Below, piece after piece: positions 8,778 to 28,871 of a stretch of DNA of 28,871 nucleotides (positions within the stretch are counted from its first letter, which is position 1; each line of letters starts with the position of its first letter). Location: positions 1 to 28,871 of IMG/VR virus record IMGVR_UViG_3300045988_059318; one strand, 5' to 3'. Made by a program: the position numbers and the translations under genes. This stretch comes from a virus. The notes under the pieces are model-generated. The model ran no database searches, had not been told where the DNA came from, and was given only the letters and a program-made list of their open reading frames with translations.

Positions 8778-8795
8778 CGCATATTTGGAGGAAAA

Positions 8796-11190: not shown

Positions 11191-11198
11191 GGACAAAC

Positions 11199-11567: not shown

Positions 11568-11584
11568 AAACAGGGGTTTAGTCG

Positions 11585-15048: not shown

Positions 15049-16826
15049 TGCTGGCAGAAGACACTATTACCCTTGTGGGGTTGCAGGGTCATGAACTCCG
15101 CACGCTCAGCCCACGCGCGGAATGGACGTTTGATCAGCGTTCCGACTCGACTAATCAGCTCACCGTCACTGTTGGCACGAATGAAGCAACCGACGTTGTT
15201 GGGGACATGGAACTATTATTCCAGCACCGTCGATTTGTCATTAACGAAGTGAATCGCACGCGCGATAATGAGACGTGTGAGATTGTCGCGGATGAAGCGC
15301 AGGCTGAAATGGCTTCAATCGAGGTTGAGTCATTCCAAGTTGAAAAGGCGAAGTTGAGCGCGGCAGTCACGCAATTGCTTTCCAACACGCTTTGGACGGT
15401 TGGAACGATTGAGGATGACACGCGTACGATTTACGCCGATCTTCAAGGCAAAAAGGTCACGGAATTGTTGACGTGGTTGGCTAATCAGTCTAACCAAGTA
15501 TTGTCTTTCGATTCCGCCCAGCGTAAAGTCTCATTCGTTAAACGGGATATGACACCTTCCGGTGTCGTGTTCAACTATGACGTGAACATGGCGAACATTA
15601 AGAAGACTGAGACGCCGCCGACCTGCACCGTCCTGCACCCTATCGGCGCCAACGGGCTGACTGTGGCAAACGTGAATCATGGCAGTGAATTGGTGGAAGA
15701 TTTCGGCTGGTACACGTCACTCGGCATGAGTGAGAATGAGGCACGTGCTCGATTCACGAAACGGCAGGAATGGCAGGACGAACGTTACACCGTCGTGCAG
15801 AATCTACTAGATGACGCGAGGAAGAAACTCTCCGTGTCCGCCTACCCAACGCTATCTTACGATTTGACAGCTGTTGACGATATCAGCGATTTACGTTTAG
15901 GCCAGCAAGCATATGTTTGGGATAATGTGCTTGACGTGCGCGTGTTGACAACGGTTAGTGTTATCCACACGTCCAGCGTGCACGATGACGATAGTGTGAC
16001 ATTGGATTACGTGCCACCATCGTTCACCATTGCGACCGATGATACTACCGGAGATACGACGTCCACGACGGAGGCTACCGTATTCCAAGCATTCAACGAC
16101 ACGGAATATACGCTAGGTGATACGGCCACACGCGTACTACCCTTGAGCATCAATGTCTACTCGGATACTATGCTTGAGTGTAATCTATGTCTCACTGTTA
16201 AAACCACGACGGCGGGACTGCTCGAAGGATATTTCCTTTTGAACGGTGAAAAGGCTGGGCCGCGTATCATGCAGACATGCGCGGAAGGGTATGTCACTAT
16301 CGGCCTTCCGTTCTTGATCACGAACGTGAGCAGTAACGACCAGACAACGCTTGACTTGTATCTGAAGCATGGTGGTGCTGGTAGTCTCGCTATCAATGAC
16401 GCGCAAATCTATATCAGTGCTAAGGGCGCGTATGGTGGTATCACTAACGAACGTCCTGACAGGCGCGTGGTTGACGCTGTGGAACGTTTTAAACGCGAAT
16501 GGCGTAACGTTGAGGATACGACGTCTATCATGTTCCCGGAACGCAACGACACTACTGTTGCTGAAACTGTGGAACGGTTCAAGACGGAATGGCGTGAAAC
16601 TGAAGACGTTGTTAATCCGATTGTGTGGCTTGAGGATAAGACGCTCACAATCACTAACGCCGAGGATGATACCGTGTTTACGCTTATCCTGCCGGACAAG
16701 AGTCAACATGAAATGCCTGCTGTTGTTGACGGGTCTACCACGTTTGACTTGAGTACGCTTGGTTTGACTGGTTCGACTAAAATTATAGTAAAGGAACTTG
16801 ACGTGAGTGTCACGGTGACGCTTTGA
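15045..16826 (+). CDS. Tail-associated protein (Tal-like) with a C-terminal extension
   Basis: Follows Dit with an ATGA overlap. ATG 15045 is preferred over track start 15009. The C-terminal part contains a 29-aa tandem repeat. Confidence 0.55.
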   Translation: MMLAEDTITLVGLQGHELRTLSPRAEWTFDQRSDSTNQLTVTVGTNEATDVVGDMELLFQHRRFVINEVNRTRDNETCEIVADEAQAEMASIEVESFQVEKAKLSAAVTQLLSNTLWTVGTIEDDTRTIYADLQGKKVTELLTWLANQSNQVLSFDSAQRKVSFVKRDMTPSGVVFNYDVNMANIKKTETPPTCTVLHPIGANGLTVANVNHGSELVEDFGWYTSLGMSENEARARFTKRQEWQDERYTVVQNLLDDARKKLSVSAYPTLSYDLTAVDDISDLRLGQQAYVWDNVLDVRVLTTVSVIHTSSVHDDDSVTLDYVPPSFTIATDDTTGDTTSTTEATVFQAFNDTEYTLGDTATRVLPLSINVYSDTMLECNLCLTVKTTTAGLLEGYFLLNGEKAGPRIMQTCAEGYVTIGLPFLITNVSSNDQTTLDLYLKHGGAGSLAINDAQIYISAKGAYGGITNERPDRRVVDAVERFKREWRNVEDTTSIMFPERNDTTVAETVERFKTEWRETEDVVNPIVWLEDKTLTITNAEDDTVFTLILPDKSQHEMPAVVDGSTTFDLSTLGLTGSTKIIVKELDVSVTVTL

Positions 16827-18040
16827 AAGTGAGAGGAAATATTTTGAACGAGTCAGTGGAACGGTTGAATATCATGCCGCACGTGAAAGGTCACGTGGCC
16901 GTGGATGTGATGGAGGACGAGCGGATTGTAGACCATGCGGAGCATGATAATTATGTTAGCCCGTTCGTCTATAACGCGTTACGCAAGTATGTCAACGCGC
17001 AATTCATGATGTTGCATGATGGAACGAAATTGTATCAGAATGGTTCTGATTTTCCACAGTGTGCGCTTAATAGCGCGTTTATCCTGACCGACTACGCGGG
17101 GCCTGTAAACACTCGGGAACGTGTGATTCACGGCACTCCACTGAGTTACGGCTTTCATCAGTACGTGTCGAATAATGCTAACGAGTGTAGCTTCAACCAA
17201 GACGAATCATATCGCAAGGCGAACTCGTTGCGTTTCGTGTTTGATTTTTCAACCTCGCAAGGGAACGGCACTTTCCAAAGTATTTATAGTGGCCCCTCCA
17301 CGAATAATCCAGCCTATAAGGCTGGATACGAACTTTTGACAGGTTATAATGTTCGTTGGACAGTGACTTACTGTGATGGAAAAATTTATACTCCGGACAC
17401 TGATAGACTTATCGCCTTCACGGTTGATGATTGGATTACACGACTTAACGGTGATACGTGGAATAGTCAAACCGTGCAAGTCCCTAACGCCGGATTAAAC
17501 AACAGGACATCTTTAACCGCGTATAATCATTCCATTTATTGGGCTAACAGGCAGTCTATTTACAGTGCGCCGGTGTCTGACCTGACTGACGTGACAACAC
17601 ATAATATCGGAGATTATTGTCAATCGATTTCTTACTCCGCAATTCGTGACTCGTTTTTCATCCTCTTCCAAAATGAGGTCAGGGAGTATTCGACTTCTTT
17701 TCAGCTTAAGAAAACTTTCACCGGCGATTATGGTTATTATATTTCTGCCATGCCGGAGGAAAACAGTGTCCTGCTCGATAATCGCGTATATGAGGTTGAC
17801 GATAATGCTAACACGTTGAAACCATGCGCACGATGGGAGTCCCTCTCACCGTTTGACTGCATGACGTTCATAGGCGATTTCGCTCTAGCCTATGGCGGCG
17901 AGTACGCGTTTACCGGGCTGTACTTGGGTTCGCAGTATTTCAGTCGTGCCCGACTCGATAAGCCCGTAACCAAAAATAGTAGGCAGACTATGAAAATCAC
18001 GTATGATTTCAACCTGCCCCCGATTGATTGGGAGCATTGA
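16823..18040 (+). CDS. Putative receptor-binding / baseplate protein
   Basis: This is the last structural ORF before the lysis genes. I recognise no motif, and the start is uncertain (TTG 16823 or ATG 16874). Confidence 0.4.
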   Translation: MKVRGNILNESVERLNIMPHVKGHVAVDVMEDERIVDHAEHDNYVSPFVYNALRKYVNAQFMMLHDGTKLYQNGSDFPQCALNSAFILTDYAGPVNTRERVIHGTPLSYGFHQYVSNNANECSFNQDESYRKANSLRFVFDFSTSQGNGTFQSIYSGPSTNNPAYKAGYELLTGYNVRWTVTYCDGKIYTPDTDRLIAFTVDDWITRLNGDTWNSQTVQVPNAGLNNRTSLTAYNHSIYWANRQSIYSAPVSDLTDVTTHNIGDYCQSISYSAIRDSFFILFQNEVREYSTSFQLKKTFTGDYGYYISAMPEENSVLLDNRVYEVDDNANTLKPCARWESLSPFDCMTFIGDFALAYGGEYAFTGLYLGSQYFSRARLDKPVTKNSRQTMKITYDFNLPPIDWEH

Positions 18041-18339
18041 TGGAGACGGCATTATTGTGCGCCATCCTCGGCAGTCAGACGGTGACTATTCTCGTGCAAT
18101 GGGTGTTGAGCAAAATCGATGCGAAACGCAACCCATTACGCGAGGGTGTGAAAGAACTCTTGTTCTGCAAACTGAAACAGTTTGACGAACAACGGGAGCA
18201 TAACGGGTTCGTGCCCATCGCGGACAAGGAAACTGTTGAACGCGTCTACACCGCCTACCATGCTTTAGGTGGTAATGGTGTGGGCACTGAGATAACTAAC
18301 AAGATTCGTACTTGCGCAAGCAGTAGGGAGGGAAAATGA
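18040..18339 (+). CDS. Single-pass membrane protein, putative holin or lysis accessory protein
   Basis: An N-terminal hydrophobic helix (METALLCAILGSQTVTILVQWVL) is followed by a charged region. It lies directly upstream of the endolysin and overlaps it. Confidence 0.45.
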   Translation: METALLCAILGSQTVTILVQWVLSKIDAKRNPLREGVKELLFCKLKQFDEQREHNGFVPIADKETVERVYTAYHALGGNGVGTEITNKIRTCASSREGK

Positions 18340-19574
18340 AACAAAAGCCGAAACATAAGCGGTTTAAGCGGAGCATGGTCAGGCCGGTTACCGGTTTGGC
18401 GTTGAGTGCGACTATTATGCTTTCGCCTAGCGTGGCGTTGGCGAACATGAATGGAGTGGACGTGAGCGGATGGCAACCCGCGAACATCACGCGCACCATT
18501 CCGGCTGATTTCGCTATCGTCAAGGCAACCGAGGGTGTGGACTTCACTAACACTTCGTGGGTTAGCCAGATTACTGGCGCTATCGAAACCGGGAAGATTC
18601 ATGGGTTGTACCATTATGCGAATGGTGGCAGTGCAGGTGCGGAAGCCGACTACTTCGTTAACACGGTAGGCTCTTATGTTGGTCGTTCTATGCTTGTATT
18701 GGATTGGGAGAGTTACCGTAATGTCTCGTGGGGGAATGGTAATTGGGTGCGTCAGTGGGTTAATCGCGTGCATGACCGGACTAGTGTCTGGCCTGTGGTT
18801 TATGTGCAAGCTTCTGCCGTGTGGCAGATTCCGCAGGACGTGCGCCAACATTGCATGCTGTGGAAGGCACAGTATGCGAGCAATGCCGTCACTGGCTATC
18901 AGTCTCAGCCGTGGAATGCTGGCAGTGCAGGTGAGGGTATGTTGCAATACACGTCTCACGGTATGTTGAGTGGCTATAATGGTTTTCTTGACCTTGACTT
19001 GTTCTTCGGGGATAAGACCGCGTGGGGGCGTATTGCCTGTGGTGAGCGTAGTGGGTGTGTGCCTAATTCGTTTGCTAATACTGGCACCACTACCACGGTG
19101 AAGCATGATACGCCGAACACTACGTCTAATGGTGATGTGAATCAGATGGCGAACGACGTTATCGCGGGCAGATACGGTAATGGCGCGACACGCAAGGCTT
19201 TGCTGGGCGGTTATTATGATTCGGTTATGAGGATTGTTAATAATCGTCTTGGATGTGGTACGTCTCAATCGTCTGCGCAATGCGTTTACGTCCAGTCTGG
19301 TGACACGTTGAGTTCGATTGCATCACGCTATGGTGGTAGTTGGACTGAGTGGACGGGCTACCGTTCCGGCAATCCGAACATCATTTATGCGGGTGAGCGT
19401 GTATGCCGTCGAGGGACTAACGTTTCCACCGGTGGAGCACGTCGTTACACTGTCCGGTCTGGTGACACGTTGAGCGGTATCGCGGCGCGATATAAGATTA
19501 ATATGAGTCAGATTAAGGGTTATCGTTCAGGCAATCCTAACGTGATTTATCCGGGCGAAACCTTGTACTGGTGA
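18336..19574 (+). CDS. Endolysin: signal peptide + GH25 muramidase + two LysM domains
   Basis: The N-terminus is MKQKPKHKRFKRSMVRPVTGLALSATIMLSPSVALA. The GH25 motif is GVDVSGWQ...AIVKATEG...GLYHYA. The LysM repeats are YVQSGDTLSSIASRYG... and YTVRSGDTLSGIAARYK... Confidence 0.85.
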   Translation: MKQKPKHKRFKRSMVRPVTGLALSATIMLSPSVALANMNGVDVSGWQPANITRTIPADFAIVKATEGVDFTNTSWVSQITGAIETGKIHGLYHYANGGSAGAEADYFVNTVGSYVGRSMLVLDWESYRNVSWGNGNWVRQWVNRVHDRTSVWPVVYVQASAVWQIPQDVRQHCMLWKAQYASNAVTGYQSQPWNAGSAGEGMLQYTSHGMLSGYNGFLDLDLFFGDKTAWGRIACGERSGCVPNSFANTGTTTTVKHDTPNTTSNGDVNQMANDVIAGRYGNGATRKALLGGYYDSVMRIVNNRLGCGTSQSSAQCVYVQSGDTLSSIASRYGGSWTEWTGYRSGNPNIIYAGERVCRRGTNVSTGGARRYTVRSGDTLSGIAARYKINMSQIKGYRSGNPNVIYPGETLYW

Positions 19575-19586
19575 TTGGAGTAAATT

Positions 19587-19886
19587 ATGGATATTACTCA
19601 GGCTGAGACTATCGCGGTTGCTATCGTCGGTTTGGTTGCTCCCGTGTTCGTGCAGGTTGTTAAACCTGTTCTGCCGGATAACATGACCGCCTTGTTTAGT
19701 CTCGCGGTCAGTGTCGTGCTGGGTATGTTGGCTATCGCGGCTGTGGGCGGGTTCAACCACGGTTATACGTGGAGTGTACTGCTTGTTGCCGTGATTGGTG
19801 TGTCGCAGACGGTTTACACTGTTGTCAATCAGGTGATGGGCGGCAAGCTTGGCAAAATGTTTGTTGACGAAAATACGTTGGCCTAG
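19587..19886 (+). CDS. Holin (multi-pass membrane protein)
   Basis: The product is 99 aa with three hydrophobic segments (IAVAIVGLVAPVFVQVV, LFSLAVSVVLGMLAIAAVGG, VLLVAVIGVSQTVYTVV). It lies next to the endolysin. Confidence 0.65.
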   Translation: MDITQAETIAVAIVGLVAPVFVQVVKPVLPDNMTALFSLAVSVVLGMLAIAAVGGFNHGYTWSVLLVAVIGVSQTVYTVVNQVMGGKLGKMFVDENTLA

Positions 19887-19892
19887 TATAAT
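19864..19892 (+). promoter_or_regulatory. Near-consensus sigma-70 promoter TTGACG-N17-TATAAT inside the last codons of the holin gene
   Basis: TTGACG lies at 19864-19869, followed by an exact 17-nt spacer and TATAAT at 19887-19892. Confidence 0.45.
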
Positions 19893-19896
19893 GTGG

Positions 19897-19984
19897 AGTG
19901 CTGAAAGTTTTGGCGATTGACTTTTAGTGCTGTCATTGATAAGCCGCACGGTTTTCTTTCACCGTGCGGCTTCTCCTTTTTTTT
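19897..19984 (+). ncRNA. Candidate small RNA (~85 nt): 12-bp G.U-containing hairpin plus terminator hairpin
   Basis: It lies downstream of the orphan promoter. Arms 19897-19908 and 19920-19931 pair with three G.U wobbles, which are valid only in the plus-strand RNA. The terminator at 19941-19984 follows. Confidence 0.35.
19941..19984 (+). terminator. Strong terminator at the convergence of the two arms
   Basis: AAGCCGCACGGT-tttctttc-ACCGTGCGGCTT is followed by CTCC and T8. The T-tract exists only for the plus strand. On the minus strand the same hairpin follows the HNH stop without a U-tract. Confidence 0.8.
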
Positions 19985-20324
19985 AAATGTCTTTCAAACC
20001 GTCCCACGTTTGCACTGGGATGCTTTCGGGTCGTGCGAACCCTGAAACGATTAATCCCAGTCGTTCGGCTTCTTTCACGTTCTCGTGTACCCAACCGTGG
20101 CAACCGGTGGTGCCTGACCCGCAGAGGGTTATGAGGTTCGAACTGGAATGCATTCCAGCATAGGGGTGCGAGCGTAAGCGCCGGTGGTGGATGGAGTAGC
20201 CGAAGGGCGTGTATCTTATGTCCCGTCCGCATCTTACGCACCGGTAGTGGTCACGTTCCAACACGAGTTGGCGGGTTTCTTCGGTCGGGTTTTTCTCTTT
20301 TGGTTTGCCTTCTTTCGCTAGCAT
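19983..20324 (-). CDS. HNH endonuclease
   Basis: The HNH/zinc pattern is RDHYRCVRCG...SIHHRRLRS...SNLITLCGSGTTGCHGWVHEN. ATG 20324 forms a TAATG overlap with the upstream gene. Confidence 0.8.
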   Translation of the reverse strand: MLAKEGKPKEKNPTEETRQLVLERDHYRCVRCGRDIRYTPFGYSIHHRRLRSHPYAGMHSSSNLITLCGSGTTGCHGWVHENVKEAERLGLIVSGFARPESIPVQTWDGLKDI

Positions 20325-20711: not shown

Positions 20712-20733
20712 GCCCCGCCCGCAAGGGCGGGGC
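20712..20733 (-). repeat. GC hairpin copy A: GCCCCGCCC-loop-GGGCGGGGC
   Basis: A 9-bp perfect stem with a 4-nt loop (TTGC in the sense orientation, inverted relative to copies B, C and E). It lies 8 nt after the stop of 20742-20978 and 24 nt before ATG 20688. Confidence 0.9.
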
Positions 20734-20741: not shown

Positions 20742-20978
20742 TCAGTCGCAGAGTTCTTCAATCTGTGCTTCATATGTGGTGTCATAGCTGGTTTCATGGA
20801 ACTTGTTGACACGCCCGAACGTGAAACCGTATTTGCGTTCACATTTGCGACGTATTGAACGGAGAATGTTCTTTGTTTCCACCGCTTCACTGTGGAACGT
20901 GTAGAAGGCGTCAAGTTTCGGGATGTCGATGGTTTGTTTTCCGTCGAAGTAGCTGATGTTGATTGTTGCGGTGTTCAT
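20742..20978 (-). CDS. Cassette ORF S1 (78 aa), paralog of 25203-25451
   Basis: Driven by leader L1. It shares MNTA.I, Y.FHSEAVE.KN, GFTFGRV and YEAQI/YEAEI with S4. Confidence 0.65.
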   Translation of the reverse strand: MNTATINISYFDGKQTIDIPKLDAFYTFHSEAVETKNILRSIRRKCERKYGFTFGRVNKFHETSYDTTYEAQIEELCD

Positions 20979-21045
20979 TTTGATTTGTCCTTCCTTGTTT
21001 GGTTGATAGTTTTATAATACATCACTATTGAGTGCGACACGCCGA
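20976..21045 (-). promoter_or_regulatory. Conserved leader L1 (promoter-like element, RBS and start codon)
   Basis: In the sense orientation it reads TCGGCGTGTCGCACTCAATAGTGATGTATTATAAAACTATCAACCAAACAAGGAAGGACAAATCAAAATG. It is 70 nt from ATG to motif end, as in L2. Confidence 0.6.
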
Positions 21046-21308
21046 CGTTCGACAAACACACCCCAACACATCGGATACTTCAATGGCACCAACCGGGACA
21101 CGCGATAATCAGCGCCATAACGCACTTCAGCAAGCCGAGCAATAACCGCGTGCGCTCTCTCCCTTGCTTCGGCAACCCGCTTATCATAGCCACGTTTGCG
21201 TTTCTCCCAACCGTTGCTAGTCCTCTCATACACCTCCCATACGACACCGTTTTCCGAATAATGAGACTGCGCACGATAGTCGTAAGCGTCAACGTTCCTA
21301 TATTTCAC
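21012..21308 (-). CDS. Hypothetical protein (98 aa)
   Basis: The start is GTG, preceded by GGGGGA. The 3' end runs through the L1 motif. Confidence 0.5.
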   Translation of the reverse strand: MKYRNVDAYDYRAQSHYSENGVVWEVYERTSNGWEKRKRGYDKRVAEARERAHAVIARLAEVRYGADYRVSRLVPLKYPMCWGVFVERRRVALNSDVL

Positions 21309-21320
21309 CGTATCCCCCTT

Positions 21321-21683
21321 TTAGTACATTTCAGCGATGTGTCGAGTGAACGCGCATACGCTGACTGCAGTCAGATAGCCACGTAATCCCGTCTTCCTAG
21401 CCATGAGAACCCAGACTGGGAAAGTGATGAAGGGTGCGAGACACCAACCGCACACGGCAAGATTCTTCAAGCTTTTCGCCTGTGCCTTTTTTCCTACCGC
21501 CACACAGTGTTTGCGGTTATCGTCCGTGGATTGCGTGAATTGTTCGTAATGGTCGGCTACTTTGTCGCACGCCATTTTCCAGCTTTCACGCATGATTCTT
21601 AATTTCAGTCCGTACCCGTCCGTGAGCTGGGCGCAAGTGTTGAGGTATCCGGCGACTAGTCCGGCCTGTACTGCTTTGTTCAT
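21321..21683 (-). CDS. Hypothetical membrane protein (120 aa)
   Basis: ATG 21683 forms an ATGA overlap with the upstream mini-ORF. There is a C-terminal hydrophobic segment (VCGWCLAPFITFPVWVLMA). Confidence 0.5.
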   Translation of the reverse strand: MNKAVQAGLVAGYLNTCAQLTDGYGLKLRIMRESWKMACDKVADHYEQFTQSTDDNRKHCVAVGKKAQAKSLKNLAVCGWCLAPFITFPVWVLMARKTGLRGYLTAVSVCAFTRHIAEMY

Positions 21684-21826
21684 TTCTTCGCTCCTTTGCG
21701 GTAGGTGTAGAGCGCCGCCAACATGCACGCGACACCGATAATATTAATGAAGTTCATGTTTTCGTTCGCAGATAGCACGATCCCGAAGAGAAAGAGTATT
21801 GTCACGAATCCGTCGTTTTTATTCAT
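21680..21826 (-). CDS. Small membrane protein (48 aa), not in the ORF track
   Basis: Translated by hand as MNKNDGFVTILFLFGIVLSANENMNFINIIGVACMLAALYTYRKGAKK. The start lies 24 nt after GC hairpin B. Confidence 0.45.
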   Translation of the reverse strand: MNKNDGFVTILFLFGIVLSANENMNFINIIGVACMLAALYTYRKGAKK

Positions 21827-21849
21827 TGTAGATTCCTTTCATTGGTGGT

Positions 21850-21871
21850 GCCCCGCCCTTGCGGGCGGGGC
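21850..21871 (-). repeat. GC hairpin copy B
   Basis: GCCCCGCCC-GCAA-GGGCGGGGC in the sense orientation. It lies 18 nt after the stop of S2 and 24 nt before ATG 21826. Confidence 0.9.
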
Positions 21872-21889
21872 GTCGATATTTTGACAAGC

Positions 21890-22114
21890 TTAAAAACCGT
21901 ATGCGCATTCGGCTTCGGAGAGCTCTTCCATGTGCTGTTCAATTCGATGCATCGGGTTAACATTTGAGATTATCAGGTAGTTGTATATTTTAGAAATATT
22001 GCCTGTGGACATTGCCGTGTGCGCGTAGTGTTCCCACAGACTGTTAGCGAGTGGATTATCAACATTGTTGAAATCGACGTGATGTGTAATGTTTTCGAGG
22101 TAAACGTATGACAT
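21890..22114 (-). CDS. Cassette ORF S2 (74 aa)
   Basis: ATG 22114 is placed by leader L2 (AAGGAAGGACAAAACAAAATG). The track start at 22201 would read through the leader. Confidence 0.6.
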   Translation of the reverse strand: MSYVYLENITHHVDFNNVDNPLANSLWEHYAHTAMSTGNISKIYNYLIISNVNPMHRIEQHMEELSEAECAYGF

Positions 22115-22181
22115 TTTGTTTTGTCCTTCCTTGTTTGGTTGATAATTACATAATACACTACTTGCGGACACGACACGCCGA
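22112..22181 (-). promoter_or_regulatory. Conserved leader L2
   Basis: In the sense orientation it reads TCGGCGTGTCGTGTCCGCAAGTAGTGTATTATGTAATTATCAACCAAACAAGGAAGGACAAAACAAAATG. It follows a terminator directly. Confidence 0.6.
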
Positions 22182-22224
22182 AAATAAAAAAAGGGAACCA
22201 ACGAAATTGCTTCGTAGATTCCCT
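22181..22224 (-). terminator. Rho-independent terminator on the minus strand
   Basis: In the sense orientation it reads AGGGAATCTACGAA-gcaa-TTTCGTTGGTTCCCT followed by TTTTTTTATTTT. It lies 4 nt after the stop of 22229-22507 and abuts the L2 motif. Confidence 0.7.
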
Positions 22225-22228
22225 AATC

Positions 22229-22507
22229 TCAACGACTGCAATACGCTAAGCACTGCACCTCAAGCGCATCCACATGGCGATAACACACCCCGTCGAACAC
22301 GAAAAAAGGCGCGCTAGAATACTTGTGAGACTTGCGCAGTGTCCAGTAACGGCTATTCCCCGGCTGAACGACCATGAGTGCAATCATAATGCCCGTTTTC
22401 TTCTTGATTCGCACCACCATTTTTCGTAGTTCGTCAATCAACTCACGGTGTTTACATCCAGCGCAATCGTCGAAGACCGCGTAAATGACACGTCGTGAAA
22501 TGCTCAC
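22229..22507 (-). CDS. Thioredoxin-fold / glutaredoxin-like protein
   Basis: VIYAVFDDCAGCKHRELIDEL (strand-CxxC-helix) and APFFVFDG (cis-Pro strand) are present. The GTG start forms a GTGA overlap. Confidence 0.45.
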   Translation of the reverse strand: MSISRRVIYAVFDDCAGCKHRELIDELRKMVVRIKKKTGIMIALMVVQPGNSRYWTLRKSHKYSSAPFFVFDGVCYRHVDALEVQCLAYCSR

Positions 22508-23391
22508 CAGTCTACACCTCCCAGTTTTTGCAGTTCGTCAATGAGAGTTAACGTCTGCAATTCTTTTGTCTCCTGTGCTTCGATTTCACTTGCAACACTC
22601 CGCCGGTCAACCGCGAACACCTCATGTTGCAAACTGCCATACACCCTATCATCGAACATGGTGAAATACACCGTTTGCAAGTCAGGGTTAACGACAAAAT
22701 ACTGCAACACTTGAGCTTGATACTGTTCGGGGATGAAGTCGAACTCTCGACGCGATTCTAGAATCTCCGGGAAGAGTTTGAGCGCCAACGACTGCAATTC
22801 ATCGCGTTGACTATTCGGAGTTTCCGAATCGTTGAGCATCTGGAATACGCGGAATGGAACAACCGTTTGGAGATGGTATTTCGTGCCCAGGCTTTTCGCT
22901 TCGAACGCGAACGTGGGATTATATTCCAGCCCGTTAATGTCGATTTGCGGCTTGGTGTGAGCGTCAGGACTGACCGCAATACGGTCGTCCACGTCACTTA
23001 CCCACATTCCAGTATCGAATTCCACAATGTCAGTGGGAATGTCAAGTTTCTCGCACGCCATCATGATGTTAGTGTTTTCCAAACGGTGGCCGCGCTCCAT
23101 TGGCGGTTCCCCGTCCGGCTGTTCCGCGATCATGTCGGCAAGAAACTGCCAAAAGTCGAGGTTGACTTTCAACCGTTCGTTATCTCGTTTGGCTTGTTCG
23201 GCTTTCACTCTGTATTCTTCGGCCTTTTCTTCGGTCTTTGCCTTGTCTGCCATGGCTTCGAGCTTGGCTACGTCCTTTTGGGCGTAATGTTCGAGCGCGA
23301 GTGTTCCGGCTTTGGTGCCAGTGATTTTGCCAATTCTGGCGTCTAACCATGCTTGCGTGTCCTGTGTTTGCGAAACGTTTAGGATCTTCAT
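22504..23391 (-). CDS. YqaJ-like (lambda Exo-type, PD-(D/E)XK) recombination exonuclease
   Basis: The N-terminus QTQDTQAWLDARIGKITGTKAGTL plus GHRLEN ... SPDAH ... FEAKS gives the catalytic pattern. Confidence 0.75.
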   Translation of the reverse strand: MKILNVSQTQDTQAWLDARIGKITGTKAGTLALEHYAQKDVAKLEAMADKAKTEEKAEEYRVKAEQAKRDNERLKVNLDFWQFLADMIAEQPDGEPPMERGHRLENTNIMMACEKLDIPTDIVEFDTGMWVSDVDDRIAVSPDAHTKPQIDINGLEYNPTFAFEAKSLGTKYHLQTVVPFRVFQMLNDSETPNSQRDELQSLALKLFPEILESRREFDFIPEQYQAQVLQYFVVNPDLQTVYFTMFDDRVYGSLQHEVFAVDRRSVASEIEAQETKELQTLTLIDELQKLGGVDW

Positions 23392-23392
23392 T

Positions 23393-23800
23393 TTAGTTTT
23401 CCTTCCTTACCGGTAATCCGTCTTCCGTGGTGGCGAGCGTGTATGCTTTCAGCAGTGTGCCCGCTATTTTTTGACGTCGTGCGGGCGGGATGCGTCGGAA
23501 CTTGTTTTCCCAATGCGCGACTTGGCATTGCCGTACACCGTACATTTTCGCCATTTCACGCTGGCTGATGCCGAACGCGTTGCGCAAATATTTCAATAAT
23601 TCGCTATCATCCAAAGAGTCAAGATAAATATTCCGACTGTTGACGGTGCGGAGATTGTTTTCATGGTCGAGTGTGAATAGGTTGCCGGTTTTTGACTGGA
23701 CAAGGTAGGCGTAAACGTCTTCTTTGATTCTGTATGTTCGCTCTCCGGCGACGGTTTTGAATGTGATGGGCATGGCTCCCGGCCATAGTGTGAGTCTCAT
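23393..23800 (-). CDS. XRE-type helix-turn-helix regulator with an unknown N-terminal domain
   Basis: The C-terminal LRNAFGISQREMAKMYGVRQCQVAHWENKFRRIP is a classic HTH_3-like motif. Confidence 0.65.
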   Translation of the reverse strand: MRLTLWPGAMPITFKTVAGERTYRIKEDVYAYLVQSKTGNLFTLDHENNLRTVNSRNIYLDSLDDSELLKYLRNAFGISQREMAKMYGVRQCQVAHWENKFRRIPPARRQKIAGTLLKAYTLATTEDGLPVRKEN

Positions 23801-24075
23801 TTATTCTCTCCCATAGTCTTTTCATCATAGAAGACGTATGCGATTCCGTTGACAATGTTGAATTGCCCTCGCACGATGCTTTGGTAAATTGTCGGTTCGA
23901 CCCCAGCCAAGTAGAGCAAGTCTAGTGCGTCCTCTCTGGAATCTGGATAGATTGCGATTTGCGGCGTGTAGTCTTTTAATTCAATGTCCGGTGAGGCTTC
24001 AGCCACTTCGCCAAGCTGGTCTAGCGTCTCTTTGAGGAACTTGACGTATTGAGCAAGGGTTATTGTATCTTTCAT
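23797..24075 (-). CDS. Hypothetical acidic protein (92 aa)
   Basis: The start lies 23 nt after GC hairpin C, and its stop overlaps the start of the HTH gene. Confidence 0.55.
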   Translation of the reverse strand: MKDTITLAQYVKFLKETLDQLGEVAEASPDIELKDYTPQIAIYPDSREDALDLLYLAGVEPTIYQSIVRGQFNIVNGIAYVFYDEKTMGENK

Positions 24076-24097
24076 TATTGTTCCTTTCGTTAGATGG

Positions 24098-24119
24098 TGC
24101 CCCGCCCTTGCGGGCGGGG
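24098..24119 (-). repeat. GC hairpin copy C
   Basis: GCCCCGCCC-GCAA-GGGCGGGGC in the sense orientation. It lies 12 nt after the S3 stop and 23 nt before ATG 24075. Confidence 0.9.
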
Positions 24120-24131
24120 CTGTGGTTTGGT

Positions 24132-24326
24132 TTAGAGTGCGTGTTCCTTGAGCAGTTCGGTGAACTCGTCGGTGTCTACCTGTTCATAATCGGTGTAGCC
24201 GTTCATGTCGCAGATGGTGCGAAGGTCTTTCGCGGCTCCGTAGGTGTCCCAATTGCCGTCATCCTGTCCGCTGTTTTGGATGTAGTTGACGATGTAGGCT
24301 TCTGCTGTGCTGAGGTTGATTTCCAT
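24132..24326 (-). CDS. Cassette ORF S3 (64 aa), strongly acidic
   Basis: Driven by leader L3. By hand count it has about 14 Asp/Glu against 3 Lys/Arg. Confidence 0.65.
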   Translation of the reverse strand: MEINLSTAEAYIVNYIQNSGQDDGNWDTYGAAKDLRTICDMNGYTDYEQVDTDEFTELLKEHAL

Positions 24327-24390
24327 TTTGTTTGTCCTTTCCTTGGTCGGTAATTACATAATACAATAGTTTTGATCACGACACGCCGGA
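24324..24390 (-). promoter_or_regulatory. Conserved leader L3
   Basis: It is 67 nt from ATG to motif end. By hand alignment, 59 of 67 positions are identical to L4/L5. It contains GTATTAT followed by the palindrome GTAATTAC. Confidence 0.6.
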
Positions 24391-24558
24391 CTAGAAACAA
24401 TCCATGACAACGAAACCCATACCCGCCAAACCAATAAGGATATCAGCCAATGCGAGAAGAATCATATAACTATCCTCACACCACAACGCCACCCCCAAAG
24501 CAACAGCGGACACAATCGTAAGCGCCAAGAAACCGCAGAATATAGCAACCTTTTTCAC
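24391..24558 (-). CDS. Small two-helix membrane protein (55 aa), not in the ORF track
   Basis: The GTG start is preceded by GGGAGG and forms a GTGA overlap with the ERF stop. The product reads MKKVAIFCGFLALTIVSAVALGVALWCEDSYMILLALADILIGLAGMGFVVMDCF. Confidence 0.45.
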   Translation of the reverse strand: MKKVAIFCGFLALTIVSAVALGVALWCEDSYMILLALADILIGLAGMGFVVMDCF

Positions 24559-25148
24559 TTATTGCCTCCCTTACTGATAGCCTGACGGAGAAGCATAACG
24601 TCATGTTCGGTCAAGTCCTGAGGCTTACGCACCTCATGGCCGAACTGCGATGCCAAAGCGTTGACGTAAAACCCTAGATTGGTTCCAGCGGCCTGAGCCA
24701 TGTCGTTAAGATCGTTGACTTCCTGTGCCGTGGCCTTCCGTGGTTGTTGTGGTGCAGAATAGTCGCGCATGGCGGCACCGTCATCGTCCTTGTCGGGGAA
24801 GATACCAAGAGCGGCGTAGAGGGAGTAGCGTCGCGCGTAGGTTACTGCGGAGCCGATTGCCTGCGGGTCGGGCACCACCACGAAGGGGTAGTCCCCCACA
24901 TTCAAGGTTTTTTCAGCGTCGAAAATGATTGTTTCGACCGTGCCGTAGCTCACTTTGTCTCCTACCGCACCCATGCGCACCACCTGCCGGAAGGCTAAAT
25001 CATACTTGGCGAAAATAGGCTTGATGGTCTTGAGAATGGTAGCAAGATTAAGGTACTTGTAGGTGCGTTGCCCGGCGTTGGCTATCAGGTCGGTGACGAA
25101 GTTGGGGACTTCGTTGAGTACTGCCATATATTTTTCTTCGAGTTTCAT
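24555..25148 (-). CDS. erf: ERF-family single-strand annealing protein
   Basis: YKYLNLATILKTIKPIFAKYDLAFRQ ... QAIGSAVTYARRYSLYAALGIFPDKDDDG is the ERF core signature. ATG 25148 is placed by hairpin D geometry. Confidence 0.8.
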   Translation of the reverse strand: MKLEEKYMAVLNEVPNFVTDLIANAGQRTYKYLNLATILKTIKPIFAKYDLAFRQVVRMGAVGDKVSYGTVETIIFDAEKTLNVGDYPFVVVPDPQAIGSAVTYARRYSLYAALGIFPDKDDDGAAMRDYSAPQQPRKATAQEVNDLNDMAQAAGTNLGFYVNALASQFGHEVRKPQDLTEHDVMLLRQAISKGGNK

Positions 25149-25170
25149 TATTGTTCCTTTCATTAATGGT

Positions 25171-25192
25171 GCCCCGCCCTTGCTGGCGGGGC
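25171..25192 (-). repeat. GC hairpin copy D (one mismatch at the loop-closing pair)
   Basis: GCCCCGCC-AGCAAG-GGCGGGGC in the sense orientation. It lies 10 nt after the S4 stop and 23 nt before ATG 25148. Confidence 0.9.
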
Positions 25193-25202
25193 GGGTGGTT
25201 GT

Positions 25203-25451
25203 TTAAAGATATTTTATTTCTGCCTCGTAGACTGCGCACTGGTCTAATCCTTGACGCCATGTGAAATCGTCTACAAGGCAGACTCGACCGAACGTGAAAC
25301 CTTCGTCGCGCTTGAGGATGTTGCGCATGTTTGCCAATTGGTTTTTAATTTCCACTGCTTCGCTGTGGAATTCGTAGACTTCTCCGGTTTCTTTGATTAC
25401 GAGACGTTGTGTGCAGATGCGATGGTTGAGGTAGATGATTGCGGTGTTCAT
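25203..25451 (-). CDS. Cassette ORF S4 (82 aa), paralog of 20742-20978
   Basis: Driven by leader L4. It shares sequence blocks with S1. Confidence 0.65.
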   Translation of the reverse strand: MNTAIIYLNHRICTQRLVIKETGEVYEFHSEAVEIKNQLANMRNILKRDEGFTFGRVCLVDDFTWRQGLDQCAVYEAEIKYL

Positions 25452-25515
25452 TTTCTTTGTCCTTTCCTTGGTCTGTAATTACATAATACATTATTGTTGA
25501 GTGCGACACGCCGGA
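25445..25515 (-). promoter_or_regulatory. Conserved leader L4 (71 bp identical to L5)
   Basis: Bases 25445-25515 equal 27835-27905 base for base. The block includes the motif TCCGGCGTGTCG, GTATTAT, the palindrome TGTAATTACA, the RBS AAGGAAAGGA and ATGAACA. Confidence 0.65.
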
Positions 25516-25934
25516 CGCGGTAGAATCTCGCCCAACCGACTCAACCCCCTAGCGGTCTCAAGACCACGGAACCGTTTAGCGGACTGTGCGGCTTCATCGA
25601 GACTACGCCCACTCAACCGGTTACGCCGATACTCCCAACTCGCATCACCCTCAATGCCAAGCGCGGCCATCTCACGCGTAATGTCGACTTCGGAAGGCTT
25701 ATGGTCACGTTTCCACCTACGCCAAAACGCATTGAGGTCGGCGGGCATGAGATACGGGCGCTTCTTCGCGTATTCCGGGTTTGCGAAAAATTGGCGTATG
25801 GCTTCTTTCGCCACGTCTAATCGCATGTCAGTTGCTAACGCTTCCATCCATGCGGCCACCTGCATATCGGTCACAAGACGATTATCAAAGGCGCTGGCAT
25901 AGGTTAGGAGTGCTTGCACTTGCAACTTGTTCAT
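25491..25934 (-). CDS. Hypothetical protein (147 aa)
   Basis: An operon ORF with an ATGA overlap upstream. The 3' end reads through the L4 motif. I recognise no family. Confidence 0.55.
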   Translation of the reverse strand: MNKLQVQALLTYASAFDNRLVTDMQVAAWMEALATDMRLDVAKEAIRQFFANPEYAKKRPYLMPADLNAFWRRWKRDHKPSEVDITREMAALGIEGDASWEYRRNRLSGRSLDEAAQSAKRFRGLETARGLSRLGEILPRPACRTQQ

Positions 25935-26344
25935 TTCAATTCATCCTTATATTCCACTTGCATTAATTTCACGACTTTCACCATGCCGTCCAAGTCACTT
26001 TTTCTAAGGTATCGCCAGAAGAGACCTTCCGTATAGGTGGTGGCTTGGTGTGCAAGGTCTAACATGTTGTCCATGTAGAGACAGCACTTACCCACTTGCG
26101 TGAGGTTGTGCGCGTCCAATGGTTTGCCATCAATTTGCAGACGGCATTTCTCGTCATTGTCGATAGCCCTCTGTAGATACCATTCTGCTTTCTGCAAGTC
26201 TTCAAGCGGATGTCCCTTGAGTCTATACCGCCACACGTATTTTATTGCGTTGCCTACGCAAAAGCTGTGGTATTGCGCGACTTCGATGCATTCGCAAGGT
26301 TTCGTGTTGTCGGTGTAGTGTGCTGGATGATTAACGTTGTCCAT
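25931..26344 (-). CDS. DUF3310-family phage protein
   Basis: NHPAHYT...CECIEV...GNAIKYVWRYRLKG.PLEDLQKAEWYLQRAI matches the DUF3310 signature as I recall it. Confidence 0.65.
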   Translation of the reverse strand: MDNVNHPAHYTDNTKPCECIEVAQYHSFCVGNAIKYVWRYRLKGHPLEDLQKAEWYLQRAIDNDEKCRLQIDGKPLDAHNLTQVGKCCLYMDNMLDLAHQATTYTEGLFWRYLRKSDLDGMVKVVKLMQVEYKDELK

Positions 26345-26356
26345 GATTGTTTCCTT

Positions 26357-26764
26357 TCAGAATTGCGGTGTGATTGAGTCCAGAAAATCGTCAAGGTAAA
26401 GGATGAAGTCTTCTTGCATTGAATCGTGTGGCTGTGGCTGATAGTCCGCATGTAGCCATTGGATGCCACTGGACATTTTCATCCACTTAATACCGGCAAG
26501 ATACACGAGTATCGTATTGTTGACTTTATCAATCGTCCAGTCTGAGGGAGCCACAACGTCCATCATGTAACTTTTAGATTGGGCTCCGCTTCTCTGTCGG
26601 TTTTCTAAGCCTTTCCATGCTGAGAGCCATACGCGGTAGCGGGCTATTTTGGGGTTGTCTTGTATGGTTAGTGCGGTTTCGAATATTGCCGTGTCTTTTG
26701 TCTTGTCGCACTCAACGACGGAATGCATGTCGTACGGTGGTATATCGTTGAATAGTGTCAGCAT
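26357..26764 (-). CDS. Hypothetical protein (135 aa)
   Basis: The start lies 23 nt after GC hairpin E. I recognise no motif. Confidence 0.55.
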   Translation of the reverse strand: MLTLFNDIPPYDMHSVVECDKTKDTAIFETALTIQDNPKIARYRVWLSAWKGLENRQRSGAQSKSYMMDVVAPSDWTIDKVNNTILVYLAGIKWMKMSSGIQWLHADYQPQPHDSMQEDFILYLDDFLDSITPQF

Positions 26765-26786
26765 TTTATTTTCCTTTCAGTTGGGT

Positions 26787-26808
26787 GCCCCGCCCTTGCG
26801 GGCGGGGC
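26787..26808 (-). repeat. GC hairpin copy E (no cassette ORF upstream)
   Basis: GCCCCGCCC-GCAA-GGGCGGGGC in the sense orientation. It is preceded by about 137 nt with no convincing ORF. Confidence 0.9.
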
Positions 26809-26945
26809 GATAACGTCAGATTGCTTGACGGAAATTGGATATTTCGTCGTTATGGTGCTTTACCGTCTCGACGTATTTCAAGGCTTCCTCGTATCCGGAG
26901 TAAGTAAACTCTGGTGGGGTTAATTAATTGCGTAGTCGCATGACC

Positions 26946-27299
26946 TTAGTCTGCGAGTACCGCTAATATGCTGCTCTCACAGTCCGGTCTTGGTAGTGGC
27001 TGCAATACGCCCATATCCTCATAGTACTGGTTCAATGCTGGCATGCTTGTTTGCATGTCCGGGTTGTCGGAATCGTAGAAGACTGTTGAGCGGAGGTATG
27101 GCGAGTATTTATCATATCGCAAGTGCAGTGGGCAGAAGAATCTCGGCTCATTATCACCGGTGAACAGGCACAGCCATTCTTCTTCGTAGATTATGTTCTC
27201 GACTGCGTCTTCCGTGCTTGACGCCCAGAAGTCGTAGGACATGTGGCAGTCTGGGTAGTCGCATTTTGCCAAGTAGGTTGTTTTCACTCTCATGCTCAT
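26946..27299 (-). CDS. Hypothetical Cys/His-containing protein (117 aa)
   Basis: CDYPDCH ... CPLH is a possible metal-binding motif. There is an ATGA overlap with the upstream gene. Confidence 0.55.
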   Translation of the reverse strand: MSMRVKTTYLAKCDYPDCHMSYDFWASSTEDAVENIIYEEEWLCLFTGDNEPRFFCPLHLRYDKYSPYLRSTVFYDSDNPDMQTSMPALNQYYEDMGVLQPLPRPDCESSILAVLAD

Positions 27300-27520
27300 T
27301 CGACGCTCCTTTCGGCTTCGCGCATGATGTGCCGCATGTCGGCATCGGTCAGCTTAGCTAGTGTCAGGTTGGCACCGGCCAAGTCTACGCCTGTCAGGCC
27401 TGCGCCTGTCAGTTCTGCGCCTCCCATGTCTGCGCCGCGTAGGCATCTGCGCCCGTATTTTTCGAGTATTTCTTCGATGTTGTCGCCTTCGAGTGTGGCT
27501 GTTGGTGTTTTAATTTTCAT
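27296..27520 (-). CDS. Pentapeptide-repeat protein (74 aa)
   Basis: GADMGGAELTGAGLTGVDLAGANLTLAKLTDADM contains consecutive A(D/N)LXX-type pentapeptides. A strong RBS (GAAAGGAAAGGA) precedes the gene. Confidence 0.7.
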   Translation of the reverse strand: MKIKTPTATLEGDNIEEILEKYGRRCLRGADMGGAELTGAGLTGVDLAGANLTLAKLTDADMRHIMREAERSVE

Positions 27521-27548
27521 TATGGTTCCTTTCCTTTCTGTTGATTGT

Positions 27549-27560
27549 GGGGGGGGGGGG
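27549..27560. repeat. Homopolymer G12 (C12 in the sense strand) in the 5' UTR of the pentapeptide-repeat gene
   Basis: Counted directly. It lies 29 nt upstream of ATG 27520. It can pair with GGGGG (sense strand, 27573-27577) to give a variant hairpin where the GC hairpin sits in the other cassettes. Confidence 0.9.
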
Positions 27561-27589
27561 ATTGTGCGGTTGCCCCCGCCGCTATAGTG

Positions 27590-27841
27590 TCACCACGTCT
27601 GCGCGAACTGTTCGACCTGCTCGGCGCTGAAGGTCTTGGCGGGGTCACGGTAGTCTTCGTCGGCTGTGGTGAAGGCGTAGGACGTGTAGTAGGCGTTGCC
27701 TTCGTCGTCGACGGCCTGATCGCGGTCGATGCTCTCCCAGCTGCCGCCTTCCTCTTTGGCTTCGATCGTATAGTCCTCGCTCATCCAGTAGTGGTAGAGG
27801 TCGGCGTAGGTGCTGGTCTTGGTGAATTCGATGCTGTTCAT
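27590..27841 (-). CDS. Cassette ORF S5 (83 aa), strongly acidic
   Basis: Driven by leader L5. It is rich in Asp/Glu/Tyr (EDYTIEAKEEGG, DDEGNAYY, ADEDYRD) with few basic residues. Confidence 0.65.
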   Translation of the reverse strand: MNSIEFTKTSTYADLYHYWMSEDYTIEAKEEGGSWESIDRDQAVDDEGNAYYTSYAFTTADEDYRDPAKTFSAEQVEQFAQTW

Positions 27842-27905
27842 TTTCTTTGTCCTTTCCTTGGTCTGTAATTACATAATACATTATTGTTGAGTGCGACACG
27901 CCGGA
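27835..27905 (-). promoter_or_regulatory. Conserved leader L5 (71 bp identical to L4)
   Basis: See L4. A second copy of the motif CGACACGCCGGA lies at 27941-27952, inside the 3' end of the replisome organizer gene. Confidence 0.65.
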
Positions 27906-27931
27906 AAAAGAAAATGCCCGCCGAAAATAAA

Positions 27932-28696
27932 TCACGGACGCGACACGCCGGACTCAATCTGAAAGCCGAAGAGGTCAGTTTGCGACTGCATCGCTTGAGT
28001 GAGATTCTGCATGTTCCTTTCCGCGTTCGTGACGGGCTTGCGGGCTTGTGGCGGGTCTGGACGGTATTCGTCATTCCATCGTTCGCCGTTAAGCCATGTT
28101 GCGAAATTGGGGATAAACCGGGTTTCCGTGTTGGCGCACTGTGCGGCAAATGCTTGCACCTTGGCCATGAGAAAGGCGCTGTTAATGCCTACTTTTGCTT
28201 TACGCCATGCCTTGTAAGCGGCCATCTTGGCCACATGCTTGGGGTAGATTGTCCACAGTTGTTCGAATGCGTTCGGGTATTCTTCGCGCTTATGTTGCGC
28301 GGGTTCCGTCGGTGCGGGTTCGCGTGTGGGTTCTACCGTGGTAGTCGATTCTGGAGCTTGGTAAAGCGTTTTATCAAGCGTATCAGACTCAGAATGGCGC
28401 TTCACATTGTCTACGTCCATTGTGACGTGATACACATTGCTCGACGCCCCACCATTATCAAGCTTGCGACGTCTTTTGACTATAAGACCCTTATCCTCCA
28501 AGCTTTTAAGAGCTTTGAGTACGGTTGGTTTGCTTAGCAATGATTCGGCGCATAGTGTGGCGAGAGACGGGAAGCATTCGCCGCTATCGTTTGTGTGGTC
28601 GGCTAATACGAGATATACGAGCTTTTCATTAGCAGTCTCGAAGTGCTTCCCTCTGATAACCCAGTGGCGTACTGCCATAAAACCATAATCACTCAT
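27932..28696 (-). CDS. Replisome organizer / replication initiator-like protein (N-terminal winged helix)
   Basis: LVYLVLADHTNDSGECFPSLATLCAESLLSKPTVLKALKSLEDKGLI is typical of the phage replisome-organizer N-terminal wHTH. The C-terminus has YPKHVAKMAAYKAWRKA ... FATWLNGERWNDE. The gene lies next to the iterons. Confidence 0.6.
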   Translation of the reverse strand: MSDYGFMAVRHWVIRGKHFETANEKLVYLVLADHTNDSGECFPSLATLCAESLLSKPTVLKALKSLEDKGLIVKRRRKLDNGGASSNVYHVTMDVDNVKRHSESDTLDKTLYQAPESTTTVEPTREPAPTEPAQHKREEYPNAFEQLWTIYPKHVAKMAAYKAWRKAKVGINSAFLMAKVQAFAAQCANTETRFIPNFATWLNGERWNDEYRPDPPQARKPVTNAERNMQNLTQAMQSQTDLFGFQIESGVSRP

Positions 28697-28703: not shown

Positions 28704-28732
28704 ATTGTATGTCAATTACCTTAATCGCGCAA
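28704..28732 (-). promoter_or_regulatory. Sigma-70-like promoter TTGCGC-N17-TACAAT for the early arm
   Basis: In the sense orientation, TTGCGC (28732-28727) is followed by a 17-nt spacer and TACAAT (28709-28704). The -10 ends 7 nt before ATG 28696, which implies a leaderless mRNA. Confidence 0.45.
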
Positions 28733-28766: not shown

Positions 28767-28797
28767 CTTCAATGGTTATTCTTCAATGGTTATTCTT
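28767..28797. repeat. 14-bp tandem repeat CTTCAATGGTTATT, 2.2 copies
   Basis: Read directly. It lies between the early promoter and the 22-bp array. Confidence 0.9.
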
Positions 28798-28798
28798 A

Positions 28799-28871
28799 GT
28801 GTAAAGCTACTTTACAGAGGGTGTAAAGCTACTTTACAGAGGGTGTAAAGCTACTTTACAGAGGGTGTAAA
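28799..28871. repeat. 22-bp palindromic repeat array, continuing into bases 1-55
   Basis: GTGTAAAGCTACTTTACA lies at 28799-28816. Full units follow at 28817-28838 and 28839-28860, with a partial unit at 28861-28871. Confidence 0.95.

Follow-up and report, generated by a model that had tools for sequence, protein, structure and literature searches.

Does a promoter followed by two small acidic proteins and a helix-turn-helix (HTH) protein mark an anti-CRISPR operon? The question is raised by a locus at 23393–24390 of a 28,871-bp viral sequence, IMG/VR record IMGVR_UViG_3300045988_059318, which we analysed over its whole length and call the window. Here a promoter-like element (L3) is followed by the 64-aa protein S3, a GC hairpin, the acidic 92-aa protein p92 and a 135-aa HTH protein, HTH135. 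A preliminary description of the sequence had compared this arrangement with operons in which anti-CRISPR (acr) genes are accompanied by an anti-CRISPR-associated (aca) gene for an autorepressor. We arrived at another reading, to which we give an even chance of being right: the locus is one early transcription unit of an early region built from cassettes, HTH135 is a general feedback regulator of early genes, and S3 and p92 are orphan early proteins.

Structure of the locus

All the parts named in the preliminary description are present on the minus strand where it had placed them, down to the overlap between the p92 stop and the HTH135 start. The unit runs on beyond HTH135 into two further genes.

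24320–24390, minus strand: L3, defined by its repeat family, by alignment and by pattern searches
24379–24388, minus strand: block 1 of L3, CGGCGTGTCG, followed by a 13-nt variable spacer
24358–24365, minus strand: -10-like box of L3, TG plus TATTAT (TATTAT at 24358–24363)
24350–24357, minus strand: palindrome of L3, GTAATTAC, directly after the -10-like box
24335–24344, minus strand: Shine-Dalgarno-like AAGGAAAGGA of L3, with a short leader before the S3 ATG
24132–24326, minus strand: S3, 64 aa, isoelectric point (pI) 4.05, net charge -11; promoter-proximal open reading frame (ORF) of the L3 unit
24099–24120, no strand assigned: hairpin C, GCCCCGCCC-loop-GGGCGGGGC, with a 9-bp all-GC stem and a GCAA loop in the mRNA sense
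23797–24075, minus strand: p92, 92 aa, pI 4.27, net charge -8; translationally coupled to HTH135
23393–23800, minus strand: HTH135, 135 aa, basic (pI 9.8); start overlaps the p92 stop (ATGA)
22504–23391, minus strand: YqaJ/RecE-like exonuclease, 295 aa (Pfam YqaJ E 7.7e-6; PHROG RecE-like exonuclease)
22229–22507, minus strand: p92b, a basic orphan of 92 aa that ends the L3 unit and whose GTG start overlaps with the stop of the exonuclease gene

The exonuclease ATG follows the HTH135 stop by 1 nt, and the exonuclease therefore belongs to the same transcription unit as HTH135. A single-strand annealing protein of the ERF family is cargo of the adjoining L4 unit (24555–25163, minus strand; Pfam ERF E 1.6e-16, PHROG Erf-like). 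With the exonuclease in the L3 unit and ERF in the next, the S3/p92/HTH135 locus lies inside a recombination module. We would read L3, S3, the hairpin, p92, HTH135, the YqaJ exonuclease and p92b as a single L3 unit. An independent gene call in ENA, made on a near-identical contig, has the same genes of 64, 92, 135 and 295 aa.

About 28 related contigs of ~30 kb were found in IMG/VR. We compared 28 relatives (loci L055–L082), which together with the window phage make 29 genomes. The order L, S3, hairpin, p92, HTH135, exonuclease and p92b is kept in 28 of the 28 relatives.

A repeated element with a conserved palindrome

The window has five copies of a 71-nt repeat element, L3 among them. The other four are as follows.

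20976–21046, minus strand: L1, with AAAACTAT and no palindrome; then S1, a hairpin near 20712–20733, small ORFs and an HNH endonuclease
22112–22182, minus strand: L2, with GTAATTAT, which keeps seven of the eight palindrome positions; then S2 and a hairpin at 21846–21872
25445–25515, minus strand: L4, identical to L5 over 71 nt, with TGTAATTACA; then S4 (25203–25451), a hairpin at 25170–25193 and ERF
27835–27905, minus strand: L5, with TGTAATTACA; then S5 (27590–27841), a 74-aa pentapeptide-repeat protein, a 117-aa ORF and a hairpin at 26785–26809

Throughout the window a unit consists of L, a small ORF, the hairpin, which comes directly or after one or two more ORFs, and then larger cargo genes. 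The leftward early region thus repeats one design five times: L, with its promoter-like blocks and a short leader that holds a strong Shine-Dalgarno sequence; a single small promoter-proximal ORF; a very stable GC hairpin with a second conserved Shine-Dalgarno sequence; and the cargo.

The palindrome had been accurately described in each of these copies, including its position just after TATTAT in L3, L4 and L5. GTAATTAC occurs in the window exactly three times, in these same elements, against 0.38 expected in a shuffle test, which is the wrong null here because the three copies belong to one repeated element; conservation is the better evidence. Among 88 distinct L elements from the relatives, block 1 (CGGCGTGTCG) and block 2 (TGTATTATGTAATTA(C/T)C) are at least ~98% conserved, whereas the 13-nt spacer between them varies freely. 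This pattern points to selection on two separate sites and argues against mere recent duplication. The 10-bp form TGTAATTACA is rare (3 of the 88).

Across the 29 genomes, the -10 box is followed by GTAATTAC in 107 of 143 L elements, by GTAATTAT in 10 and by AAAACTAT in 9; another 17 are a variant with TGTATAAT and a CGATAATGTA-like sequence. The last two classes have no palindrome and still keep block 1 and the -10 box, which argues that the palindrome is an added regulatory site rather than a part of the core promoter. In the window phage and 8 relatives there is no palindrome in the L1 unit, to which the HNH gene belongs.

The palindrome might nevertheless be no operator at all. In that case a strong early promoter would simply have its -10 box, discriminator, start site and 5' end in block 2, TGTATTATGTAATTAC; selection, together with recombination between the copies, would keep this block uniform, and HTH135 would act elsewhere: by switching on later genes, as a DNA-binding accessory of ERF and the exonuclease, or as a regulator of host genes. 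L copies do recombine, as the shuffling of slots described below indicates, and recombination alone homogenises sequence. This alternative sits less easily with a spacer that varies freely inside L while the palindrome does not, or with two L classes that have dispensed with the palindrome and retained the rest. We hold it to be possible, if somewhat unlikely, and return to it with the evidence from HTH135.

From its sequence we infer that L is an early promoter. As RNA, L has no significant fold (z -0.15 to -0.9), and an Rfam search of the window matched only a tRNA; a structured RNA or known RNA family was accordingly rejected as an explanation of L. A sixth copy of CGGCGTGTCG stands at 27937–27950, 47 nt upstream of L5, with no -10 box after it. 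At that site relatives have a full, palindrome-less L variant (TGTATAAT) ahead of three or four extra genes, and the window phage appears to have lost a sixth L unit through deletion between L copies.

Hairpins and exchangeable small genes

The repeat to which hairpin C belongs joins a hairpin to a ribosome-binding site and is present five times in the window. Folded as RNA, hairpin C reaches -23.9 kcal/mol (z = -4.5) and has no U tract; on its 3' side stand a second conserved Shine-Dalgarno sequence, GAAAGGA, and then the p92 ATG. Stem variants in the relatives are compensatory (GCCCCACCC/GGGTGGGGC four times, GCCCCGCTC/GAGCGGGGC once). The hairpin after S1 (20712–20733) has the loop TTGC in the mRNA sense against GCAA in the other four, so the stem, not the loop, appears to be conserved. 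A role of the hairpin as a protein operator was considered and judged unlikely, since in the stem variants both arms change and pairing is kept, which is more in keeping with a nucleic-acid stem than with a protein site. The hairpin may attenuate or process the transcript, and the first ORF would then be made in excess over the cargo.

The first ORFs after L fall into 16 families, and those small-ORF families that were tested are orphans in Pfam and PHROGs. The slots held by S1, S2, S4, S5 and about ten other orphan families differ between relatives, while L, the hairpin and the cargo stay (20742–28149, L055–L082). S1 and S4 are paralogues that share FHSEAVExKN...GFTFGRV. The L3 unit has a distant relative in L084, a 2.3-kb Logan contig (SRR3469669, 1–2259) whose HTH protein is ~45% identical to HTH135. 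L084 keeps the hairpin, with a compensatory G-C to A-T change in the stem, together with p92 (a 93-aa ORF judged by eye to be p92-like), the HTH gene, the exonuclease and p92b, and an unrelated acidic 96-aa ORF replaces S3. Because small ORFs swap slots in the relatives and S3 is replaced in L084, the exchangeable position is the ORF between L and the hairpin; the stable core is p92-HTH-exonuclease-p92b.

One could go further and regard the L units as distributed, exchangeable early cassettes for counter-defence or host takeover, with L and the hairpin as recombination borders and HTH135 shutting the set down through GTAATTAC. Five or six L units would each hold one swappable orphan behind a common strong promoter and before an insulating hairpin. 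The whole would resemble an array of the promoter–stem-loop (PeSL) kind under Aca-like control, in a small Bifidobacterium-type phage. We think this extended version improbable.

HTH135 as a candidate early repressor

The C-terminal XRE-type HTH domain proposed for HTH135 was confirmed: residues 69–112 of 135 (window 23465–23596) match Pfam HTH_3 with E 4.8e-7, above the gathering score, and the PHROG matches (8, 7241 and 3) are transcriptional regulators or repressors. HTH135 is the only XRE-type regulator in the window genome. Its N-terminal domain (residues 1 to ~65) is clade-specific and without known relatives. The best PDB sequence matches, namely HipB, the C-proteins C.BclI and C.AhdI, and P22 C2, reach only E ~0.02 and are generic to the HTH; no solved Aca is among the PDB sequence matches at E up to 1, whether a single sequence or a profile was used. 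Full-length homologues occur only in this clade of ~30 kb phages. None was found in 185,579 species genomes or, by tblastn, in cultured phages, and an HMMER scan of 1.8 billion representatives matched only the generic HTH part outside the clade.

In the reading that we prefer, HTH135 is itself made from an L unit and probably exerts negative feedback on the L promoters with GTAATTAC, which lies at about -6 to +2. It would repress early genes genome-wide, with a Cro-like role and an Aca-like logic, and would not be an anti-CRISPR-associated protein in the dedicated sense. As GTAATTAC is common to the early units, any repressor that binds it would control the whole early region, not one inhibitor operon. 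Judged from sequence, binding of HTH135 to L is a weakly supported but reasonable proposal.

Several observations weigh against this proposal. HTH135 comes as three alleles, A (~90% or more identical to the window copy), B (~64%) and C (~45%), with the recognition helices VRQCQVAHWE, VRQAMVAHWE and VHQTAIANWE. A and B differ at two recognition-helix positions, yet the L motifs of the phages that carry them are identical. Covariation is hinted at by no more than one L element, that of L084 beside allele C, with GGTATTACC and an odd palindrome, GGTA-T-TACC; it reads TGTATTATGGTATTACC against TGTATTATGTAATTACC, and the 8-bp palindrome is broken. This was the one allele-C element recovered in all, searches for more clade-C DNA having given nothing useful, and as a single case it is suggestive. 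The unspaced 4-bp arms of GTAATTAC also differ from the usual operators of HTH dimers such as Aca2 IR1, TTCG-N6-CGAA (PMC6765145). Furthermore, L has no recognisable -35 box. CGGCGTGTCG occupies the -35 position, unlike in the window's three TTGCAT/TTGCGC sites, and for want of this box the L elements were not picked up by a sigma70 consensus scan, which was at background level overall. Finally, some relatives have GTAATTAC in every slot, so that a last unit regulated differently from the others is no general feature.

The lack of covariation between alleles A and B and the L motifs, and a palindrome so short and unspaced, count in favour of the alternative in which the palindrome is no operator. 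So does the place of HTH135 between p92 and the exonuclease, with both of which it stays at deep divergence. The clade-C element points the other way, for it has two bases changed and is still palindromic.

S3, p92 and the question of an acr-aca operon

S3 and p92 are clade-restricted, fast-evolving orphan genes, with no sequence matches in Pfam, PHROGs or PDB. The 94 homologue clusters of S3 are all on contigs of this phage clade; for p92, with 385 clusters, the best 120 of the 385 are all clade members and at least 78% identical to p92. The ratio of nonsynonymous to synonymous substitution rates (dN/dS) is 0.26 for S3 and 0.29–0.33 for p92, and both are therefore real coding genes. Neighbouring genes have values of 0.07–0.16; the rate of evolution of S3 and p92 is about three times that of the enzymes next to them. 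AlphaFold2 (AF2) predicted a three-helix bundle for S3 (predicted local distance difference test score, pLDDT, 93) and an alpha-beta-alpha-beta3 fold for p92 (pLDDT 87.6 in the best model, 46–66 in the other four). No significant fold match was found for S3 in PDB (best E 1.6) or for p92 in PDB or BFVD.

The preliminary description had suggested looking for DNA-mimic features in predicted structures. In the Pfam, PHROG and PDB sequence searches and the PDB fold searches of the AF2 models (for p92 also BFVD), neither protein matched a known Acr or DNA mimic, AcrIE3 appearing only at E 5.8. Nor is their acidity distinctive, most early proteins of the window genome being acidic. Qnr, MfpA and other pentapeptide-repeat proteins mimic DNA, and the fold family of the 74-aa pentapeptide-repeat protein of the L5 unit (27296–27520, minus strand; Pfam E 1.6e-8) makes it a stronger candidate for a DNA mimic than either S3 or p92.

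Could the locus still be a genuine acr-aca or anti-defence operon, in which S3, p92 or both inhibit CRISPR-Cas, restriction-modification or some other host defence and HTH135 is a dedicated Aca-type autorepressor at the L3 palindrome? The features that we looked for were a homologue of a known or predicted Acr in the operon, genes on the same strand with gaps of <250 bp, proteins of <200 aa and an Aca of the families Aca1–13. The AcaFinder rules ask for an HTH protein of <150 aa and for proteins all of <200 aa (PMC9765179), and Aca operators lie in the core promoter (PMC9410906, PMC6765145). As the preliminary description had noted, order and sizes fit: a promoter-like element precedes two small, acidic, promoter-proximal early proteins and an HTH_3 protein of 135 aa, coupled to p92, and there is a palindrome in the core promoter. 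The orphan status of S3 and p92 is typical of Acr proteins, and their faster evolution would also be in keeping with such a role. Strand and spacing agree with a short-gene operon, but the size rule fails because the operon runs on from HTH135 into the 295-aa exonuclease.

Other features argue against the acr-aca reading. The promoter and palindrome are common to most early units, acidity is general among this phage's early proteins, and the searches above matched no known Acr, DNA mimic or solved Aca. Moreover, Aca families are recognised by one aca gene that recurs beside changing acr genes in unrelated elements. HTH135, by contrast, is confined to one clade, its neighbours p92 and the exonuclease are invariant, and only the more distant S3 slot changes beside it, and that once. 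The acr-aca reading is partly supported, with most of its defining features not seen here, and we regard a genuine operon of this kind as highly doubtful. An anti-defence role of S3 or p92 is possible; the two are candidates for host takeover or for inhibition of nucleases or defence only by their position, size and faster evolution. An acr-aca-like gene order alone is therefore insufficient to call such a locus. Here that order results from a general early-operon design together with a recombination module.

The recombination module raises a further possibility. Lambda Gam and P22 Abc2 are nuclease inhibitors of phage recombination modules, and p92, possibly with S3, might be their functional analogue, shielding the ends of phage DNA from RecBCD or AddAB. 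p92 lies between ERF and the exonuclease, both of which were confirmed, is small and acidic, and is inherited together with the exonuclease in every relative, L084 included. Neither S3 nor p92 is similar to Gam or Abc proteins in Pfam, PHROG or PDB sequence searches or in PDB fold searches (for p92 also BFVD), however, and p92 has no sequence or fold similarity to other solved proteins. Its AF2 model was confident in one of five runs. With position as the sole argument, we give a nuclease inhibitor little probability.

The surrounding genome

The window looks like a complete phage genome, and the phage is probably a virulent siphovirus of ~29 kb; the window genes that were scanned include neither an integrase nor a CI-like repressor. 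Its large terminase is 53% identical to those of BlindBasel1 and BlindUri1, phages of honeybee Bifidobacterium, and megablast of the early region gave no nucleotide match to cultured phages. Outside the L units the main features are these.

~100–19,900, plus strand: block with an HTH_17 protein of 55 aa, a single-stranded DNA-binding protein, RusA, two tRNAs, terminase, portal and a protease-capsid fusion, continuing to ~19,900 with tape measure, Dit, tail proteins and a GH25-CW_7-LysM endolysin
28,696 down to ~19,983, minus strand: early block with an HTH_36/DnaD-like replication protein, DUF3310, ERF, the YqaJ-like exonuclease, HNH endonuclease and many orphans
19983–20321, minus strand: HNH endonuclease, which closes the leftward gene block and is part of the L1 unit
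112–279, plus strand: HTH_17 protein, 55 aa, excisionase/MerR-like (Pfam E 1.5e-10)
2488–2573 and 2759–2831, plus strand: tRNA genes Ser(GCT) and Gln(TTG), between a promoter-like TTGCAT-17-TATATT (2366–2394) and the terminase gene
76–104 (plus), 2366–2394 (plus) and 28704–28732 (minus): promoter-like sites with TTGCAT or TTGCGC, 17 nt and TAnnnT
1–73 and 28795–28871: terminal 22-bp tandem repeats GAGGGTGTAAAGCTACTTTACA, each with the spaced palindrome TGTAAAG-CTA-CTTTACA

The same 22-bp tandem repeats stand at both ends of the window, and these common ends suggest a circularly permuted or terminally redundant assembly. At least four other types of 22-bp repeat occupy the same place in relatives. 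The repeats are most likely origin iterons, because their type tracks the allele of the adjacent HTH_36/DnaD-like replication protein (rep254), whose gene follows the promoter-like site at 28704–28732, and not the HTH135 allele. For the same reason we rejected the repeats, with their palindromic core TGTAAAGCTACTTTACA, as an operator of HTH135; L080, with allele B of HTH135, has the same iterons as allele-A phages. The other DNA-binding proteins of the genome have better-fitting roles, rep254 with the iterons and the HTH_17 protein beside a sigma70-like promoter. The HTH_17 gene lies just 3' of this promoter, TTGCAT-17-TATAGT (76–104), and overlaps the listed ORF 137–595 in another frame. As a second small DNA-binding protein, its product might act on block 1 of the L elements. 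At ~19950–19980 a hairpin with A/T runs on both sides adjoins the HNH gene between the convergent early and late blocks; it is probably a bidirectional terminator.

Comparison with known systems

With acr-aca operons (PMC6765145, PMC9410906, PMC9765179) the locus shares a promoter, small non-conserved proteins and an HTH protein of <150 aa on the same strand. It also shares an inverted repeat inside the core promoter, and a strong early promoter might plausibly be subject to negative feedback here as well. The differences are that the HTH gene stands directly before a 295-aa exonuclease, that copies of promoter and palindrome are spread over the early region, and that the HTH family belongs to one phage clade, with fixed neighbours and no Acr or Aca homology found. 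HTH135 has an additional N-terminal domain of ~65 aa, and where Aca2 IR1 has spaced half-sites, the arms of the 8-bp palindrome are unspaced.

Cro/XRE early repressors and the C proteins of restriction-modification systems offer a second comparison: HTH135, a small protein with an XRE-family HTH domain by HTH_3 and PHROG matches, is made from a unit that it may regulate. Unlike in those systems, the similarity extends only to the generic HTH (E ~0.02), the operator is putative, and there is no partner repressor or lysogeny module. As in lambda exo-bet-gam and P22 erf-abc1-abc2, small acidic proteins are encoded between an annealing protein, here ERF, and a neighbouring exonuclease, here of YqaJ/RecE type, but in the window an HTH regulator is inserted and ERF and the exonuclease belong to separate L units.

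The PeSL cassettes of T4-like phages (PMC2839356, PMC4122927) provide a further parallel. There, too, conserved promoter and stem-loop motifs are repeated through the early region, flank small orphan ORFs and mark the borders where related phages have gained, lost or exchanged such ORFs. Correspondingly, the window has five copies each of L and the hairpin, and the 29 genomes have 143 copies of L, a promoter by inference; small ORFs change their L-to-hairpin slots while the cargo stays, S3 being the one replaced in L084. The PeSL motif is a composite terminator and promoter in a large T4-like myovirus. Here, by contrast, the exchangeable ORF lies between promoter and stem-loop, and the phage is a siphovirus of ~29 kb whose closest relatives in culture are Bifidobacterium phages. 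The two systems have unrelated motif sequences, and the hairpin in the window lacks a U tract and is joined to a second ribosome-binding site.

What is new here is a small phage with such relatives in which promoter and hairpin recur as the borders of swappable orphan ORFs. If L and the hairpin are portable borders, this clade would be a compact natural system for the acquisition and swapping of host-interaction genes in phages of gut Actinobacteria. The orphan families found in its slots, at least ten in number, would then make up a shortlist of possible anti-defence or host-takeover genes.

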